Positions 24,484 through 32,309 of a DNA stretch of 35,416 bases are shown piece after piece. The stretch is from an uncultured Lachnospiraceae bacterium. Lineage in GTDB: Bacteria > Bacillota > Clostridia > Lachnospirales > Lachnospiraceae. The notes below the pieces were generated by a model. That model was not told where the DNA came from. It worked only from the letters and a program-made list of their open reading frames with translations, and ran no database searches. The stretch spans positions 1 to 35,416 of the forward strand of contig CAREEU010000007.1 of the NCBI GenBank assembly GCA_948964755.1. The letters are read 5' to 3'. The translations under genes and the position numbers were made by a program. Position 1 is the stretch's first letter; each line of letters starts with the position of its first letter.

Positions 24484-26658
24484 TTATTTGGAATACTCTG
24501 CTTTTCTCTCTATAATCCAGTCCTCTAGTTTCGGAAAGTTTGGATTGGCTTGCTGCCAGGCAACAGAAACAGGCGGTGAACAATATCTGCAGCGGTTCAT
24601 TGGAGTTAGTAAGGCTTGTTTTATCTGACAGAGTGTCAGATTCGGCTGATATAAATCAACCGCACCGTCACATGGAATTGCTTTTTGAAAGGTTTGATTA
24701 AAATAAGGGGTTACAAACGGCAGAAAGCACGCCGCTATTTTTCCCTCATATAAATTATGATAGTGAGCCTGTAGGCATCGGAAAAATTGTTCTGTTTTAT
24801 CATTATCTCCCGAAACATTCTGCTTCATTGTAAAATTTTCCATTAAAGGCGAAACCCAATAAGATACCCCCTTTTTATTTAAAAATTCTTTGATTTCTTC
24901 TATTTTATCCTTCATTGGTGGATACCAAGAAATAGAAAAATAACCGTTTACTATCTTCATCAAATAAAATAGTTCATCTTCCATTTGCTTTAATAAAAGA
25001 GCATTGGTTACAACGGCTATTTTAGAATCTGGATAAACTTCTTTTGTTAAAAGAAGAAATTTTTTTAATTCTTTATTTAATAAAGGTTCCCCGCCCATAA
25101 TTCTGATTATTCCAATATCTTTGATAAATGATTTTAACTGAAAGAAATCTTTCTTAAACTGTTCATAATTGGTAATTTTCTTTTTTTCTACTAATGGAGC
25201 ATAATGCTCACATGCTTTACAATTTAAGTTACAATGATCTACAACATGATATTCCAGATAAGGTAAATAGGGACAATCTAAATAAGGTACCAGTAAATGT
25301 GATAATTCTTCTTTAGCATATTGATTTTGTTTTAATAAATTTCTTCCTATACAGTAGATATCATTAATATCCACCCCTGCCTGAATCAAATCGGTAATTA
25401 AAAAGGATTGTCCTATATAAGCAGCAGTTGGAATTACGATTGCTGCTACTTTTTGTTCCTTATATAGAGTGACAAACTTTTTTAACTCTATAACTGGTAC
25501 TCCTTTTTGCATCGATACAAAAGGTTTTTCTACAACAAAATGTGTAACTTCAAATTTATAATTATTGGGATCTAAATCCTGAAGATACATATTATATAAA
25601 TTTTCAATTAAATTTTTCGCCGTTATACTATAATTTTCTGTTCCATATACTGCAATCTGAATCCTATCTTCCAATTTTTGTATGACATTTATTTCTTCTG
25701 AATTTCTAAATGGATTATGTTCTAATAAAATAGAAAGTAAATCGCTTACTGCTTTTTCAAATTTTGATTTCTCTGCCCGAATAAAAGAACGATAATATTC
25801 AAAATCTGAAATATAGGTATCATATTCATTTACTAACTGTTCTATACAGGAACAAATTGCTGGTACATCTGCTATTGTACGTTTAAACTTATATTGATCC
25901 ATAATCGGAATATCTTCATAGTAATCTGCACTTCCATTCCTGCCTGTTACAATGCAGCAACCGCTGATTGCTGCTTCCCTTGGCATCCGATCTTTGCCCG
26001 GATGATTTCCAAAATCAATATATACCCGACTTTCCAGCATAAGATGGGAAACCTCATCTGGTGACATTTGGGCAATTGGAATCCAATGCAGATTTGGCGA
26101 AAATGCTATCAATTTATTTGTAAAATCAAGACCTTTTTTCGGATTATAAAGAACATTTAACTTACGTTTCGAAGAATCCAACAATACTTCTTCTGTAAAA
26201 AAATCTTCTCCCAAATAATCGGATACCTCAAAAATCTGTTCTTCAGAAACGCCTGCTTTTTTTAAAAAATCTTTTGCATACATGGATTGTGTCATATGCA
26301 ATATTGATTTATTTTTTTTAAAGCTATACCATTTTTCAACAGGATTTGCTAAAAAATAATTGTCTACACTTTCCCACCATATAATAACAGAACATCTTCT
26401 AAATTGAGTTTCTGCCATAACAGCCATCACTTCCGGCAAAACAATAATAGCATCCTTTTCATTATAAGTATTTACCAAAAAAGGATTTTTATATTTTTCA
26501 TATTGTTCTGGAACGGGATGCCCCATTTCAGGAGTATTATCTATATACAATAATTTTGCTATTCCAAAATGCTGTTTATTCAGTTCAAAAACAAGCTGTT
26601 GAAGCAGTTCTACCCCCCCGGTAGTAACTCTTGGCGGGGAACAAACATAAATATTCAT
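24484..26658 (-). CDS. Large fusion protein: N-terminal glycosyltransferase-like region, central unknown domain, C-terminal radical SAM domain with SPASM/twitch-like Cys cluster
   Basis: The C-terminal domain has the CxxxCxxC motif (HCNLNCKAC) followed by GGEPLL and a terminal CRYC Cys cluster. The N-terminus (VCSPPRVTTGGVELL) resembles the GT-B 'GGxE' start. ATG 26658 has an AAGGAG RBS at 7-nt spacing. The track ORF begins at a TTG codon at 26724. Confidence 0.7.
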   Translation of the reverse strand: MNIYVCSPPRVTTGGVELLQQLVFELNKQHFGIAKLLYIDNTPEMGHPVPEQYEKYKNPFLVNTYNEKDAIIVLPEVMAVMAETQFRRCSVIIWWESVDNYFLANPVEKWYSFKKNKSILHMTQSMYAKDFLKKAGVSEEQIFEVSDYLGEDFFTEEVLLDSSKRKLNVLYNPKKGLDFTNKLIAFSPNLHWIPIAQMSPDEVSHLMLESRVYIDFGNHPGKDRMPREAAISGCCIVTGRNGSADYYEDIPIMDQYKFKRTIADVPAICSCIEQLVNEYDTYISDFEYYRSFIRAEKSKFEKAVSDLLSILLEHNPFRNSEEINVIQKLEDRIQIAVYGTENYSITAKNLIENLYNMYLQDLDPNNYKFEVTHFVVEKPFVSMQKGVPVIELKKFVTLYKEQKVAAIVIPTAAYIGQSFLITDLIQAGVDINDIYCIGRNLLKQNQYAKEELSHLLVPYLDCPYLPYLEYHVVDHCNLNCKACEHYAPLVEKKKITNYEQFKKDFFQLKSFIKDIGIIRIMGGEPLLNKELKKFLLLTKEVYPDSKIAVVTNALLLKQMEDELFYLMKIVNGYFSISWYPPMKDKIEEIKEFLNKKGVSYWVSPLMENFTMKQNVSGDNDKTEQFFRCLQAHYHNLYEGKIAACFLPFVTPYFNQTFQKAIPCDGAVDLYQPNLTLCQIKQALLTPMNRCRYCSPPVSVAWQQANPNFPKLEDWIIERKAEYSK

Positions 26659-26681
26659 CTTTTTCTCCTTTACTTTTCCTA

Positions 26682-27836
26682 TTACTTTTTCCATACCTCT
26701 AATATTGCAGCAATTCGATGCCAATAAGTATGTCCCTCTATCAGTTTCTGATATGCCGCCTCCTTTACACGTTCTCTTTCTTCTATATGATTTCCATATC
26801 GTACAATCGCACGTGAAAACTCTGCAGGATTTGTAAAATATACTAATGTTTCATCTCTCTTAAAAAAATAAGCATAATCCCTCTGAAATCCAACAATAGG
26901 AAAACCTCCTGCTGCTATTACTTCCAACGTATCCCTTGGAATACCATTATGTAAAGTATGAGGTGCTAATACCAAAGTAAATTCTTTTCCGGCATAAATT
27001 TTCTTCCTCGCTATTTCATCTTCCACCAAAGCCTTTTTTTTAGAATTACAATCTGGAAACTCTCCGTTAGAATAAATTGTCATAATGGAAGCAAAATTTT
27101 GTAAAAATATTTGCTGCTGTATTCTAGTACATACAGGTGCAAAATATCGATCTGCCACAAAAAGTTTCTGCATTTCTAAAAGAAGATTCTCTGGAAGGAT
27201 ATTTCCCTTTAAAAACTCCTGTTGTACCCGAAGCAATAATCCATTTTCTAGAATATATGCCCCATATAATACCCTTTGTGCATGAATAAAAGCATCTAGA
27301 TAGCCTTTACTGTAAATGGACATTTCCTTTGTATTTAAAACATCCTCTGGGCATTTTGCAAGAAAACATACTTCTCTTTCCATAGGCACAATTTCTCGTA
27401 CACTATCTACTTCTACAGCATCAGGCAGAAAAAAGGCATTTGTAATTCCTAATTGCCATAGTTTTTCTACCAAATAACTATCACATACAAAAAAATAATT
27501 ATATCCATTCCGCACAGAAGCTGTATATAAATCAAAATTAGGAAGCTGTAAGATCCAACTGCAATAAGGAATGGCTTCTCTTTGGCAAAAATCCGATATA
27601 AACGATAAAAAATTAACAGAAAACACCATATCACCCGCTGCTGCTCGAATCTGCTCTTTCAAGGAAAGCAAAAGAGATTCCACTTTTTCTTTCTGTTGTA
27701 TTTCCTTTTTTTCTTCCCAATTCTGTATCAATTCATGTGAAAGCAGAATTGTATTTACCAAAATTCCCATCTCTTTCCATGCTTTTAGAATAGCTTTATC
27801 ATAAGGATAGCCCCATATAAGATATGTTAGCTTCAT
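26682..27836 (-). CDS. CgeB-like glycosyltransferase (DUF3880 + GT1-like C-terminal domain)
   Basis: The 384-aa protein is paralogous to 28046..29065. It ends with the typical family motif (GHTYWHRIAAIL). ATG 27836 has a GAGGAA RBS. Confidence 0.6.
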   Translation of the reverse strand: MKLTYLIWGYPYDKAILKAWKEMGILVNTILLSHELIQNWEEKKEIQQKEKVESLLLSLKEQIRAAAGDMVFSVNFLSFISDFCQREAIPYCSWILQLPNFDLYTASVRNGYNYFFVCDSYLVEKLWQLGITNAFFLPDAVEVDSVREIVPMEREVCFLAKCPEDVLNTKEMSIYSKGYLDAFIHAQRVLYGAYILENGLLLRVQQEFLKGNILPENLLLEMQKLFVADRYFAPVCTRIQQQIFLQNFASIMTIYSNGEFPDCNSKKKALVEDEIARKKIYAGKEFTLVLAPHTLHNGIPRDTLEVIAAGGFPIVGFQRDYAYFFKRDETLVYFTNPAEFSRAIVRYGNHIEERERVKEAAYQKLIEGHTYWHRIAAILEVWKK

Positions 27837-27859
27837 AATAATTCCTCGCTTATCTGTCT

Positions 27860-28045
27860 TTATTTTGATAACTTGTTTTTCAAACCTGAGAGTTCCCATA
27901 TTCGATTTAATTGATGTTCATAACTAAACTTATCTTTGACAATTTTATAACCGTTTTGTCTAATTTTTTCTGCTTCCTTTTCATGACTTAGATAATATTT
28001 GCACTTATCTAATGCCTCTTCCATAGAACTATATATCAAAAGATC
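27860..28045 (-). other. In-frame 3' continuation of the CgeB-like gene at 28046..29065, separated from it only by one TAA codon
   Basis: Translation directly after the TAA at 28046-28048 continues in frame as DLLIYSSMEEALDKCKYY...FSYEHQLNRIWEL. This aligns residue by residue with the C-terminus of the paralog (ETLVYFTNPAEFSRAIVRY...GHTYWHRIAAIL). The stop aligns with Glu, so GAA to TAA is a single substitution. Confidence 0.55.
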
Positions 28046-29065
28046 TTATCCGTCTTTAAAATATTCATTTAAATCTTCTTGATAATTTGTCATTGCTAAT
28101 GCATGACAGCCCATAATATCAATCACTCGCTGAGGGATACCCCGGCGAATATTTCGCAATGTAATATTTAAATTTATTTTACTACACTTAAATACAAGCG
28201 GCATATCATATCTATAATCTACAGGTTCACATATCTTTACATTTGGAAGTTTCGGACTATTTATGGTAAACAACTTTACATGATAATATTTTGCCAATAG
28301 TGTAAGTAAAAGTATTCTCTCTTTATTGGTTACTGCCTTTAAAAGAAAAGCAATCAATCCCCAACTTTTTACTTCTTCTACATCATGAAAAAAATTATGA
28401 TTCAAATTTTTCAATAAAGCTTCTGTTACTTTTTGATTGCATAGACGTTTAATAAGATTTTCATTAATTAATTCTTGAATAAAATTCGTACCATAAACAT
28501 TTAACTGTATATTAATCAGTGCTGCAATATAGCCTGCACCATATTCATCAAATAGGGGAAACATTTTATCCATATCTGATTGATAAAGCTGCCCAACAAA
28601 AGAAATATCTGCATGATATTTCATCCTTCCCATGGGAGTAGGTTTCATTCGACTTAAACGTCTAGCATCAGCTGCCAAAGGTAAATAATAAAAAATATTT
28701 TTTACTCCATGTTCCTGAAATTCCTCATATTCCGAAGAATCAAATAAAAAAATACGATTGGTGTCAAAAAAATGAGTTTCATTTGCTATGCCTAAGGCTG
28801 GACTATCATATGTCCAACAAATATAAAGTATATTTCTTGCATGTGCTGCCTCTGCCAACTCCAAAAAAAAATTAATAGAAAAAATTGCATCATATTTTTT
28901 ATTATCTAAGGCTTTTTCCAAATCCTCCCGAAACTGCTTACTTTGTGAATTTACTCTAGGATTTGACTTTGAATTAAATAAATCATATTCAATCCCCTGT
29001 TTCTGCATTGCTCTATACAAATCATACTTTGTAATAAAATTCCAATCATAAATAAATAGCTTCAT
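28046..29065 (-). CDS. CgeB-like glycosyltransferase, truncated by an in-frame TAA (possible pseudogene or nonsense allele)
   Basis: The 339-aa protein has an AGGAG RBS. It lacks the last ~60 residues present in the paralog. Those residues are encoded in frame immediately after the stop. Confidence 0.6.
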   Translation of the reverse strand: MKLFIYDWNFITKYDLYRAMQKQGIEYDLFNSKSNPRVNSQSKQFREDLEKALDNKKYDAIFSINFFLELAEAAHARNILYICWTYDSPALGIANETHFFDTNRIFLFDSSEYEEFQEHGVKNIFYYLPLAADARRLSRMKPTPMGRMKYHADISFVGQLYQSDMDKMFPLFDEYGAGYIAALINIQLNVYGTNFIQELINENLIKRLCNQKVTEALLKNLNHNFFHDVEEVKSWGLIAFLLKAVTNKERILLLTLLAKYYHVKLFTINSPKLPNVKICEPVDYRYDMPLVFKCSKINLNITLRNIRRGIPQRVIDIMGCHALAMTNYQEDLNEYFKDG

Positions 29066-29174: not shown

Positions 29175-30758
29175 TTAACCAAGAAGAGAAAGAACTCCTT
29201 GATTGCTCTGATTTGCTTGAGCTAACATAGATTGACCAGCTTGAGCCAAAATATTATTATTCGCATATCTTACCATTTCAGTAGCCATATCCGTATCACG
29301 AATTTGACTTTCAGCACTTGTCGTATTCTCCACTACATTATCTAAGTTATTAATTGTATGCTCTAAACGGTTTTGAACAGCACCAAGGGCAGCTCTTTGA
29401 TCAGAAACCTTATTCAATGCCGCTTTAATTGTTTCAATTGCATTTAATGCATTTGTATCATCTTCTCCATTTACCTTTAAACCAGTGACACCAATTGCCT
29501 TAGCACTCATAGACTTTATATCAAGAGAAATCTGATTATTGGTTGTAGCATCTGCACCTACATGAAGATTCAAAGTTAAAGCACCTACATCAAATTTATC
29601 TGTATAACTTAACAATCTATCCACGTCAGCCTGTGTTGCCAACTGACGGTCAGTTGCACCCTCTCCTGTCTTTAAATACAGTTCTGCATTAGGATCTAAC
29701 TTACCGTTGTTGTTAATATATTTATCTAAACCATTCGCAGCAATCTCATTACCATCCTTATCAATAAATTGAACTACGCCCTTACTTGTATAGTCAGAAT
29801 AAGCGACAGAATCTACAGCAAGTTTTACAGGAGCAAGCGTAGAATAATACTTCGATATATCTGCAGCAGTCGCACCAATATCTGTCCCTATCTCTTTCCT
29901 ATTTCCATCTGAATCATATACTTCTGTCTTCAGCTTATAATGTGCACCAGTATCAGTTATAGTATTACTAGCAATTGCAACTGCTTGGCTCTTTATATCA
30001 CCTGTTCCAGCACTAGAAGAATAATAAGTTATTGTTGAATCATATGCTTCCCCAGAAGCAACTTGATAATATTCATCTCCCACTTTCTTCAAATACTTAC
30101 CTGTACTATCCGTGAAAACTGCTTCCGAATTATTTAAGAAATTACCAGAATCACTAGATGCAATCGCTACTCCATAGGTTGCACCTGTACTGTCACTATA
30201 ATATACTTTTGTTGAATCAACTGCTGTTTTCAACGTCCCTTTCGATAAAGTCTTAACGGTATTATCTTCTACATAGTAAAGGTCTTGGCTAATCACATCT
30301 ACTTCTTTATATTGGAAATTTGTGTCTTTTGCAGCATTTACATCCCCTTTTAACAAATAAGTTTCATTAAACTTCGTTGTCTCCGATACACGATCGATTT
30401 CTGTTACCAACTGATCGATCTCAGCCTGAATCGCATCTCTATCAGAAGAAGAATTCGTTCCATTTGCTGCCTTTACTGCCAATTCATTCATTCTCTGAAG
30501 CATATCCTGTACTTCTGTCAATGCACCTTCTGCTGTCTGTACGGCACTGATTCCGTCCTGTGCATTAGAAGAAGCCTGTGTCAGTCCTCGGATCTGCTTT
30601 CTCATTTTTTCGGAAATTGCCAAACCTGCTGCATCGTCTGCTGCACGATTGATCTTATAACCAGATGATAATTTTTCTGTGGATTTTGCCTGAGCCTTGG
30701 TTGTGATACCTAGCATACGATTAGAATTCATTGCTGTAAGATTGTGTTGTACTACCAT
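29175..30758 (-). CDS. fliC: Flagellin
   Basis: Conserved N-terminal ([24 protein letters not shown]) and C-terminal ([24 protein letters not shown]) flagellin domains flank a ~250-aa Ser/Thr/Tyr/Asp-rich variable region. AAGGAGG RBS is upstream. Confidence 0.9.
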
Positions 30759-31022: not shown

Positions 31023-31277
31023 TTAGCTTCCTGCCTTCGAAGAAAATTTCTTTTTTCGAAACCGTTCTGCCAATTCCGGTTCTGCATAATATTGAGGAAG
31101 AGATCCCCTCTCTTCTTCCGGCACGTTCTGTTCCATCACTTTACTTCTCACTACACCGACTTCCTTTGGTGCATCAATCAGAATTCGAAGATGGCTTTTA
31201 CTGCCTCCTAAAAATGCAATCTTAATATTATCCCCTATCATCAGGTATTCTTCTGTACTTAGAGTCAGTCTTAACAT
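31023..31277 (-). CDS. csrA: Carbon storage regulator CsrA (flagellin translational repressor)
   Basis: MLRLTLSTEEYLMIGDNIKIAFLGG...ILIDAPKEVGVVRSKV matches the CsrA fold signature (MLVLTRK..IGD.I...V......V.IGI.AP..V.I.R.E). AAGGAGG RBS is upstream. It lies directly upstream of fliC. Confidence 0.8.
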   Translation of the reverse strand: MLRLTLSTEEYLMIGDNIKIAFLGGSKSHLRILIDAPKEVGVVRSKVMEQNVPEEERGSLPQYYAEPELAERFRKKKFSSKAGS

Positions 31278-31320
31278 CTAAAAACCTCCTTGTTTTCTCC
31301 ATGTCTTCTGTGCCAATATG

Positions 31321-31355
31321 AAAATGCAACATTTGTTAGTAAAATGTTGCATTTT
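31321..31355. promoter_or_regulatory. lox/FRT-like candidate recombination core site 1 (14-bp perfect inverted arms, 7-bp spacer GTTAGTA)
   Basis: The site reads AAAATGCAACATTT-GTTAGTA-AAATGTTGCATTTT. It lies between the divergent csrA and recombinase genes and overlaps a putative -10 (TAAAAT 31340-31345). Confidence 0.6.
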
Positions 31356-31390
31356 TAAGAAAGCAAAATTCAACGAACGGAGGATCTATC

Positions 31391-31981
31391 ATGAGCACAA
31401 CACAGCCTATTAAAAGCAAAGATGCACTGAACCAATTTAAAAATTATTATTTGCTGCAAAAACCTCAGCCAAGAAACTATACCCTGATTATATTGGGACT
31501 AAATACAGCACTGCGAATCTCCGATATTCTCACATTAAAATGGAACGATATCTATGATGACCATACTAAAACCATGAAAAAACATTTAGAAGTAATAGAA
31601 CAAAAGACTGGAAAATCCCGCACGATTGCATTAAACCGCTCTATCTGCACCACCCTAAAAAACTACCTCTCGTATTCCTTCCAGGAAAAACCCTATGAAA
31701 AAGAGCAGTATCTCTTCTTAAGTCAGAAAGGAAAGAATGAGCCAATCAGTCGTTCTCAAGCCTACCGAATTATCTGTACTGCTGCCAAAGCATCTGGACT
31801 GGATCAACATATCAGCTGCCACTCTCTAAGGAAGACATTCGGTTATCATGCGTGGAAACAGGGAACCCCTCCAGCCCTTTTAATGGATCTTTACAATCAC
31901 TCCTCCTACAGCATTACCAAGCGATATTTAAGTATTGAACAAGACGAAAGAGATGAAGTGTATTTAAAAATTACACTCTAA
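31391..31981 (+). CDS. Minimal tyrosine recombinase (phage-integrase catalytic domain only, FimB/FimE-sized)
   Basis: The 196-aa protein has the catalytic residues in order: R (NTALRISD), K (TGKSRTIAL), HxxR (HSLRKTF), H/W (GYHAW) and Y (TKRYL). GGAGGA RBS is upstream. There is no N-terminal core-binding/SAM-like domain. Confidence 0.8.
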   Translation: MSTTQPIKSKDALNQFKNYYLLQKPQPRNYTLIILGLNTALRISDILTLKWNDIYDDHTKTMKKHLEVIEQKTGKSRTIALNRSICTTLKNYLSYSFQEKPYEKEQYLFLSQKGKNEPISRSQAYRIICTAAKASGLDQHISCHSLRKTFGYHAWKQGTPPALLMDLYNHSSYSITKRYLSIEQDERDEVYLKITL

Positions 31982-32031: not shown

Positions 32032-32109
32032 CCCTTGAAAAATAAAAAATTTAAAAAAATTCAAAAACGCTATAAAGTATTTTATAAAAACACCGATATA
32101 AAAAATATA

Positions 32110-32144
32110 AAAATACAACATTTTACTAACAAGTGTTGTATTTT
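32110..32144. promoter_or_regulatory. lox/FRT-like candidate recombination core site 2 (spacer TACTAAC, exact reverse complement of the site-1 spacer)
   Basis: AAAATACAACATTT-TACTAAC-AAGTGTTGTATTTT matches the reverse complement of site 1 at 32 of 35 positions. The arm changes within site 2 are self-consistent (G to A in both arms). Confidence 0.6.
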
Positions 32145-32309
32145 TATTTTTTATAAAGTATCTTCCTTTTCTATTCTACTAAACAGCATAAACAAAAGCA
32201 AATATTTTTATACATATCTATCATATCTTATAAAATTCAAGAAAATTTTTCATCTTTTTCCTAAATTTTCTGTATTTTACAACACATTATACAAATCAAA
32301 TATTCTATT

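Follow-up and report, generated by a model that had tools for sequence, protein, structure and literature searches.

BtrN is the founding twitch radical S-adenosylmethionine (SAM) dehydrogenase; in spectinomycin biosynthesis the twitch radical SAM dehydrogenase is SpeY, whose epimerase relative is HygY. Flagellins, the other subject of this report, reach far beyond motility: those of Lachnospiraceae are among the main bacterial antigens for the human gut immune system, and to our knowledge their glycosylation is almost unknown. We know of no flagellin glycosylation system with a radical SAM component, and a literature search found no paper on radical SAM enzymes in flagellin glycosylation. Here we analyze a 35,416-nt stretch of DNA from an uncultured Lachnospiraceae bacterium (GenBank assembly GCA_948964755.1, contig CAREEU010000007.1, positions 1 to 35,416 of the forward strand; hereafter, the window), in which the last gene behind the flagellin gene fliC encodes a glycosyltransferase (GT)-fold domain, a Rossmann-like domain and a twitch radical SAM (rSAM) domain in a single polypeptide. 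From observed folds, motifs, family membership, synteny, fusions and alleles, we infer the reaction, substrate, order of steps and flagellin target of what would be a two-activity tailoring enzyme for a flagellin O-glycan in gut Lachnospiraceae, a reading to which we give a probability of roughly 0.55. If confirmed, it would place radical SAM chemistry in flagellin (protein O-glycan) biosynthesis for the first time and would assign a function to a large uncharacterized rSAM family (349 cluster representatives at E <= 1e-30); its study would also define a GT-B family that lies outside all Pfam models and is common in phage contigs as well.

A three-part fusion protein

Is the fusion real? The open reading frame (ORF; 24484..26658, minus strand; stop codon at 24484-24486) could begin at a TTG at 26724, giving 746 aa, or at an ATG at 26658, giving 724 aa. 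Direct reading of the sequence finds a Shine-Dalgarno-like AAGGAG (26665..26670, minus strand) separated from this ATG by a 6-nt spacer; the 724-aa protein, which the initial annotation had described as the last gene behind fliC, is therefore the likely product. An assembly artifact or a chimeric ORF is rejected because more than 30 independent contigs were found to carry this protein or a near-identical one. When the first set of homologs was laid onto the query by BLAST, three blocks (aa 1-~310, ~317-461 and ~462-717) were found in separate combinations. They correspond to an N-terminal domain with the GT-B glycosyltransferase fold (aa 1-316; 25711..26658), a middle Rossmann-like α/β domain (aa 317-461; 25276..25710) and a radical SAM core with a C-terminal twitch domain (aa 462-724; 24487..25275), all on the minus strand. 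AlphaFold models of aa 1-316 and aa 317-724 have predicted local distance difference test scores (pLDDT) of 94.9 and 94.6, respectively, and the latter has a predicted template modeling score (pTM) of 0.91. On these predicted structures, the gene is confirmed as a real fusion of a domain with a sugar-transferring fold and a radical SAM domain, in three confidently modeled parts; the domain plan first proposed (a GT-B N terminus, a folded middle region and an rSAM C terminus with an auxiliary-cluster Cys motif) was right in each part.

In the whole protein, the sole Pfam match is Radical_SAM (PF04055; aa 472-564, 35.7 bits against a cut-off of 29.5), and NCBIfam returned only MoaA, twitch-type and viperin models, all far below their cut-offs. 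Within the PF04055 match lies the CX3CX2C motif of the SAM-binding [4Fe-4S] cluster (C476, C480 and C483; 25210..25233, minus strand), invariant in 109/109 aligned sequences. The CNLNCKAC and GGEPLL motifs are unchanged across these homologs, and the domain has the GGE motif and the partial TIM-barrel fold of the radical SAM superfamily. The assignment that had been made from HCNLNCKAC and GGEPLL is thus borne out by the Pfam score and by the alignment of the Cys motif.

Beyond the core, five residues of the putative auxiliary-cluster region (C628, G639, C644, C690 and C693; 24580..24777, minus strand) are likewise invariant in all 109 sequences. Their spacing, C-X10-G-X4-C...C-X2-C, indicates a one-cluster twitch domain, and a hairpin is predicted at residues 319-326 of the C-terminal part. 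A SPASM domain ending in the Cys motif CRYCSP had been suggested here: the terminal CRYC (C690/C693) is indeed invariant and, together with C628 and C644, gives C-X15-C...C-X2-C, but the SPASM label is only loosely right. Pfam SPASM does not match at E <= 0.1; direct reading finds neither CX2CX5CX3C nor a seven-Cys motif; and besides Cys633 (see below) only four C-terminal cysteines are conserved in the rSAM family. A full SPASM domain is rejected, and the twitch domain takes its place.

Which reaction might such a domain catalyze? A B12-dependent rSAM methylase is rejected, as no Pfam or NCBIfam match to a B12-binding domain (PF02310) was found in the whole protein or in the middle domain; C-methylation, one of the modifications initially proposed, is disfavored because Pfam and NCBIfam matched no known methyltransferase domain. 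Epimerization or alcohol dehydrogenation is favored. SpeY (PDB 7WZV) is the top structural match of the rSAM part, a profile of the family finds the 7WZV sequence at E 1.9e-13, and the CX3CX2C-x-H motif and the C...G-X4-C twitch motif are common to both. Could the domain instead modify the flagellin polypeptide itself, by amino-acid epimerization or cross-linking, as SPASM/twitch enzymes that act on ribosomally synthesized and post-translationally modified peptides (RiPPs) do? We consider this very improbable: a single auxiliary cluster is predicted, no RiPP recognition element was found, and the family is repeatedly fused to glycosyltransferases.

The middle ~140 aa, initially described as of unknown type, do form a folded domain, predicted to be small and Rossmann-like, but they are part of a widespread unit. 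An exhaustive HMMER search with aa 317-724 returned 3992 representatives at E <= 1e-3, of which 349 reach E <= 1e-30; the majority are standalone proteins of about 370-390 aa that span blocks 2 and 3. In this large family of standalone rSAM proteins, the middle region is thus the N-terminal domain. No Pfam family matched any of nine isolated middle domains. The best structural matches are the Rossmann-like domain of a uridine diphosphate (UDP)-quinovosamine 4-dehydrogenase entry, FkbM, and part of a sugar N-acetyltransferase entry. The family is present in the cultured Lachnospiraceae bacterium AC2012, Butyrivibrio sp. Su6 and Selenomonas ruminantium HD4. Some members (P0196, P0144 and P0158) have other partners: the rSAM unit stands at the end of a 1440-aa nonribosomal peptide synthetase-type protein (A-PCP-C-rSAM) or is doubled in a tandem rSAM-rSAM arrangement.

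Among 5.8 billion proteins, the full three-block architecture forms only three clusters, at 99%, 77% and 68% identity; a fourth cluster (P0006) has a shortened first block, and P0008 has blocks 2 and 3 only. The fusion that the initial annotation called unusual is thus real and rare, but it is one of several GT-rSAM fusions in a family whose members are also joined to GT2 (P0123), GT4 (P0137) and GT8 (P0203) domains. By hhalign (probability 93.8%, E 1.8e-7), standalone GT-B family proteins end in an extension homologous to the second half of the middle domain. The window gene is a rare fusion of two recurrent flagellin-locus modules, of which the unfused gene pair is far commoner.

What, then, is the N-terminal domain? 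The GT-B-like character claimed for the first ~330 aa is borne out by the fold: aa 1-316 are predicted to form two Rossmann-like lobes with a cleft between them, although this stretch of ~316 aa has no Pfam or NCBIfam match. Residues invariant in the family include G14-G15, E76, N172-P173-x-K175-G176, H219-P220-G221 and R227-E228. An alignment profile of the domain found nothing meaningful among PDB sequences, the top matches being coiled-coil noise against mS26, and the sequence signature of GT4 enzymes (Glycos_transf_1 or Glyco_trans_1_4 together with EX7E) is absent. We compared the domain with AmGGT and Agt-type glucosyltransferases (PDB 8XSG/8XSH), of which Agt homologs elongate sugars already on peptides. 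In AmGGT, N100, K171 and E231 sit in the donor-binding site, and mutations of K171 and E231 cause the strongest loss of activity; the HMMER alignment pairs N100 and E228 of the window protein with AmGGT N100 and E231, and K175 is matched to K171 after manual re-registering of the stretch. The match is marginal (E 0.013, with no GT Pfam model matching the window domain). AmGGT Glu223, taken as the first Glu of EX7E, is aligned with the invariant His219-Pro220-Gly221, and its uridine-binding Arg203 with a near-invariant Pro; since both are replaced, the donor may differ. As judged from sequence, this GT-B family has a recognizable nucleotide-sugar site, but its catalytic or donor pocket is atypical.

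In IMG/VR viral contigs (L105-L184), giant-virus bins included, the GT-B family (motif DFGNHPG...DRxPREAA) counts 89 confirmed relatives, and a GT-B+GT2 fusion (L094:9001-10524) lies in a contig with terminase and HNH genes. An unannotated 432-aa protein in a related locus (L009) was considered as a further member and is not one.

The flagellin locus and its alleles

The fusion gene closes a block of genes on the minus strand that begins with csrA (31023..31277), an ORF whose equivalent in relatives is PF02599 CsrA. The flagellin gene follows (29175..30758; PF00669 at 4.7e-43, PF00700 at 7.2e-27), encoding 527 aa with a long central variable domain, and then two CgeB-like GT genes, both with DUF3880 and Glyco_trans_1_2 matches in Pfam. 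The first (28046..29065) ends after 339 aa at a premature in-frame stop (28046-28048), beyond which the homologous frame runs on to about 27900; the second (26682..27899) is intact and encodes 405 aa. Downstream of the fusion gene lie rpsO and pnp. The two CgeB-like glycosyltransferases noted earlier behind the flagellin are supported by these Pfam matches. The Ser/Thr-rich character noted for the flagellin variable domain also holds, but the enrichment is modest: 19% Ser+Thr in aa 141-440, against 11% in the other window ORFs.

Is the block more than a chance neighborhood? It persists in relatives of the fusion protein at 77%, 68% and 51% identity, the last of which is without the rSAM part, so the synteny with flagellin proposed for the window extends to these lineages. 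GT genes are conserved beside flagellin, the mark of a glycosylation locus, in L001-L005 and L097-L104; csrA is in the same order in L001, L005 and L097-L104; and L004 and L005 (the 68% and 51% relatives) have different flanking genes around the block. Neighborhoods were counted in 60 species-representative loci with the middle+rSAM architecture: a flagellin gene lies within 10 kb in 24/60 and a CgeB-like GT in 29/60, whereas flagellin is nearby in 0/20 of the more distant relatives that lack the middle domain. The flagellin-linked loci are mostly from Lachnospiraceae. An unfused equivalent of the window block is found in L096, in the order flagellin-GT-GT, a 454-aa protein ending in the GT-B domain, and a 386-aa middle+rSAM protein; in L010, L011 and L019, a GT-B family gene (33% identity, E 1e-55) directly follows the rSAM gene. 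Fusions, adjacency and synteny together link the rSAM family in function to glycosyl transfer and, within Lachnospiraceae, also to flagellin loci.

Other features of these loci deserve mention. Two ORFs of ~1688 aa (L071:435-5501 and L073:1527-6554) carry flagellin N- and C-terminal domains at their ends and are unusually large flagellins; they adjoin CgeB-like GT genes and a standalone rSAM gene. In L006 (854-10958) and L096 (12851-19327), family members stand beside LicD-, glycerophosphotransferase-, IspD- and alcohol-dehydrogenase-type genes, a hint of ribitol- or glycerol-phosphate glycans in some flagellin-linked loci. In the window itself, a 196-aa tyrosine-recombinase gene (31391..31981, plus strand) lies between two copies of a ~43-nt element (31315-31357 and 32108-32150) that are 88% complementary, each copy itself being a hairpin and the left one lying 38 nt upstream of csrA-fliC. 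The recombinase and the repeats could be an invertible, phase-variable switch of the flagellin operon or just two terminator-like hairpins; the orientation of the recombinase gene is the same in all related contigs examined.

Within the rSAM family, the window protein stands out at one position. Codon TAT at 24760..24762 (minus strand) encodes Tyr633, six residues before the invariant twitch Gly, where alignment column counts give Cys in 108/108 homologs and where, in the broader family, 81/88 representatives that match the motif pattern also have Cys. SpeY, by contrast, has Ser six positions before its twitch Gly: in an ungapped stretch of the profile alignment, residue 633 falls on S203 of chain 7wzv_A. 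This chain has 322 residues, 300 of them ordered, which fits a tag of ~20 residues; if such a tag is assumed, S203 would be native SpeY Ser183, and position 633 would be the counterpart of SpeY Ser183 and HygY Cys183. SpeY Ser183 reportedly faces the substrate carbon opposite SAM, HygY Cys183 is said to be the hydrogen donor that makes HygY an epimerase, and exchange of residue 183 reportedly interconverts epimerase and dehydrogenase behavior. On this reading, the Cys in 108/108 homologs would make the family ancestrally a radical sugar epimerase; the window allele, with Tyr633, would have lost the donor Cys of HygY/NeoN-like epimerases, which its sister allele P0386 retains.

Tyr633 is not a sequencing error, because a protein identical to that of the window, P0387, was found on 10 contigs from different samples, GCA_948806775.1 included. 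The commoner allele of the species, P0386 (NCBI MCX4268050.1, "radical SAM protein [Lachnospiraceae bacterium]"; 22 contigs), has Cys. Each of the four Tyr-allele contigs shown carries the same break in the first GT gene (339 + 59 aa on three of them; the fourth begins inside this gene and has the same 59-aa fragment), and the gene is intact, with 401 aa, on the four Cys-allele contigs shown; the premature stop in the window stands at Lys340 of relatives. The product of the second CgeB-like gene is identical to that of the Cys haplotype (compared with L097). Over 7.5 kb the Tyr and Cys haplotypes are 98.9% identical, and their flagellins are distinguished by nine residues, all of them within the variable domain (flagellin aa 271-375), S296A and S297T included; flagellin surface residues and glycosylation genes vary together. 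Because Tyr633 is combined with a truncated first GT gene, the pathway in the window strain may be altered or impaired. In the sister species, position 633 is mostly Arg.

It is conceivable, though we think it rather unlikely, that Cys/Tyr alleles in this species and Cys/Arg alleles in the sister species amount to a natural version of the HygY Cys switch, toggling the epimerase to a dehydrogenase or off and, together with on/off GT mutations, creating strain-level differences in the flagellin glycan. If true, this would be a radical-enzyme route to variation of the flagellar surface in gut Lachnospiraceae. Separately, the last ~95 residues (from about aa 630, behind a variable stretch around residue 633; window 24487-24820) are nearly identical in the window protein and in the 77%-identical sister-species protein of L001, and the middle and rSAM domains show less synonymous divergence (dS) than the GT-B domain, which suggests recent recombination between species.

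A possible pathway and its rivals

The two-activity enzyme that we favor would work as follows. The two upstream CgeB-like glycosyltransferases would build a glycan on flagellin, to which the GT-B domain, with its GT4-like fold, would add a nucleotide-sugar residue. The SpeY/HygY-like twitch rSAM domain would cleave SAM at the CX3CX2C cluster, and the resulting 5'-deoxyadenosyl radical would take hydrogen from a carbinol carbon of the sugar. In the ancestral, nearly universal form, the conserved Cys would give a hydrogen back to the opposite face, completing a radical C-epimerization; the Tyr allele of the window would stop at a keto-sugar, as a dehydrogenase does, end in an abortive reaction or mark an impaired pathway, so that the window strain probably no longer performs epimerization. 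The fusion itself would have arisen from neighboring GT-B and rSAM genes of a modular flagellin-glycosylation locus. As to when the radical step would occur, we lean only slightly toward a nucleotide sugar that is held by the Rossmann-like domain, modified before transfer and passed to the fused transferase, because this extra domain resembles domains of UDP-sugar enzyme entries.

Several observations weigh against this scheme. To begin with the transferase, no GT-B Pfam model matches any of 73 family members (the sole GT matches are to fused GT2 domains), and of the two Glu of the GT4 EX7E motif only the second is present, as the invariant E228; P220, part of the invariant H219-P220-G221, stands in place of the first. 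Transferase activity is accordingly uncertain. Housekeeping loci and many viral contigs also carry members of this GT-B family, so it is not flagellin-specific. The equation of residue 633 with residue 183, for its part, depends on an assumed 20-residue tag. The remaining points bear on the order of steps, on the state of the rSAM half, and on the target.

Why should the sugar be modified before transfer? The characterized enzymes of the SpeY/HygY/NeoN/BtrN group are reported to act on assembled or nucleotide-free substrates, which speaks against a nucleotide sugar, and SpeY is the top structural match. In the reverse order, a close alternative that we hold to be possible but less probable, the GT-B domain would first attach a common sugar to the flagellin glycan, and the twitch rSAM domain would then epimerize or oxidize this residue in place; the middle domain would serve in docking or dimerization, not in nucleotide binding. 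A shared docking module would explain the homology between half of the middle domain and the C-terminal extension of GT-B family proteins. Modification in place is also consistent with the standalone rSAM gene often adjoining flagellin (at 58-133 nt in L030, L049, L060 and L063) and with a window locus without nucleotide-sugar synthesis genes. The likeness of the middle domain to UDP-quinovosamine 4-dehydrogenase and sugar N-acetyltransferase entries, however, fits a nucleotide handle equally well.

Is the rSAM half still in use? A rather doubtful explanation holds that it is a decaying relic in this strain, and more clearly so in the sister species, leaving a protein that is only a glycosyltransferase or a whole locus that is being lost. 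The window allele has Tyr in place of a Cys found in 108/108 homologs, accompanied in the contigs examined by the nonsense codon in the first GT gene. In the sister species, where Arg prevails at this position, about eight family-invariant residues have been lost (H471S, D474N, H485Y, R519Q, S577F and F609I can be named), and truncated forms of 607 and 621 aa circulate (P0399-P0404, in the cluster of P0002). Furthermore, P0004, P0005 and P0007 retain blocks 1 and 2, the GT-B and middle domains, entirely without an rSAM domain, so the latter is dispensable in related lineages. And yet none of the 35 invariant residues of the family alignment has been lost from the window protein, the commoner allele of the same species keeps its Cys, and among the three fusion lineages the rSAM domain has a ratio of nonsynonymous to synonymous substitution rates (dN/dS) of 0.11-0.23, which does not exceed that of the GT-B domain. 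Wholesale pseudogenization is rejected on these ratios; the rSAM half is therefore functional in the lineage overall, yet repeatedly altered or lost in branches. Nor need Tyr633 mean inactivity: Tyr could in principle also donate a hydrogen atom, and the HygY paper, in its title, speaks of a single Cys change that uncovers dehydrogenase activity, not of plain inactivation. The 607- and 621-aa forms diverge directly after a Lys/Gly run (KKKGG), which suggests that a homopolymer frameshift removes the twitch domain in P0399-P0404.

Finally, the three genes behind fliC might serve another cell-surface or spore glycan pathway and merely adjoin flagellin. The Pfam name of the DUF3880 family is YkvP_N, and CgeB and YkvP are spore-associated; 36/60 rSAM family loci, including most Selenomonad-type loci, have no flagellin within 10 kb; the standalone homolog in L006, among LicD-, IspD- and alcohol-dehydrogenase-type genes, can be read as part of a ribitol-phosphate polymer pathway; and phage contigs, too, carry the GT-B family. 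We judge this explanation improbable, since the flagellin-GT-GT-fusion block stays intact while the flanking genes change, and the 40% of loci that lie within 10 kb of flagellin are far above the 1-2% that we roughly estimate for a random gene. At several loci (L009, L030 and L063), moreover, the rSAM gene stands between flagellin genes or directly after one, and some GT-B relatives carry TPR-type N-terminal extensions, which are typical of protein-directed glycosyltransferases.

Comparison with described systems

How does the proposed two-activity tailoring enzyme compare with systems already described? In the clustering of GT genes directly behind flagellin, the locus resembles Maf-type systems, Pseudomonas FgtA, Listeria GmaR, Caulobacter FlmG and C. 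difficile CD0240; GmaR and FlmG also have TPR-type extensions, as do some of the GT-B relatives here. The GT families differ: DUF3880/Glyco_trans_1_2 and an unclassified GT-B family take part here, unlike those of the known flagellin glycosylation systems.

On the radical SAM side, the C-X15-C...C-X2-C pattern of the window protein resembles the C-X18-C...C-X2-C of BtrN (PDB 4M7S/4M7T), but BtrN is a much weaker match than SpeY, acts on 2-deoxy-scyllo-inosamine and is without the extra N-terminal domain. Compared with SpeY and HygY, the present family (i) has an additional Rossmann-like N-terminal domain of ~130 aa; (ii) belongs to flagellin and glycan loci of Firmicutes from gut and rumen and not to aminoglycoside clusters; (iii) is only about 21% identical in sequence; and (iv) is here fused to a glycosyltransferase, with Tyr at the key position in the window allele. 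The chemistry is thus probably of the kind already known from SpeY and HygY, in a new setting and in a new architecture.

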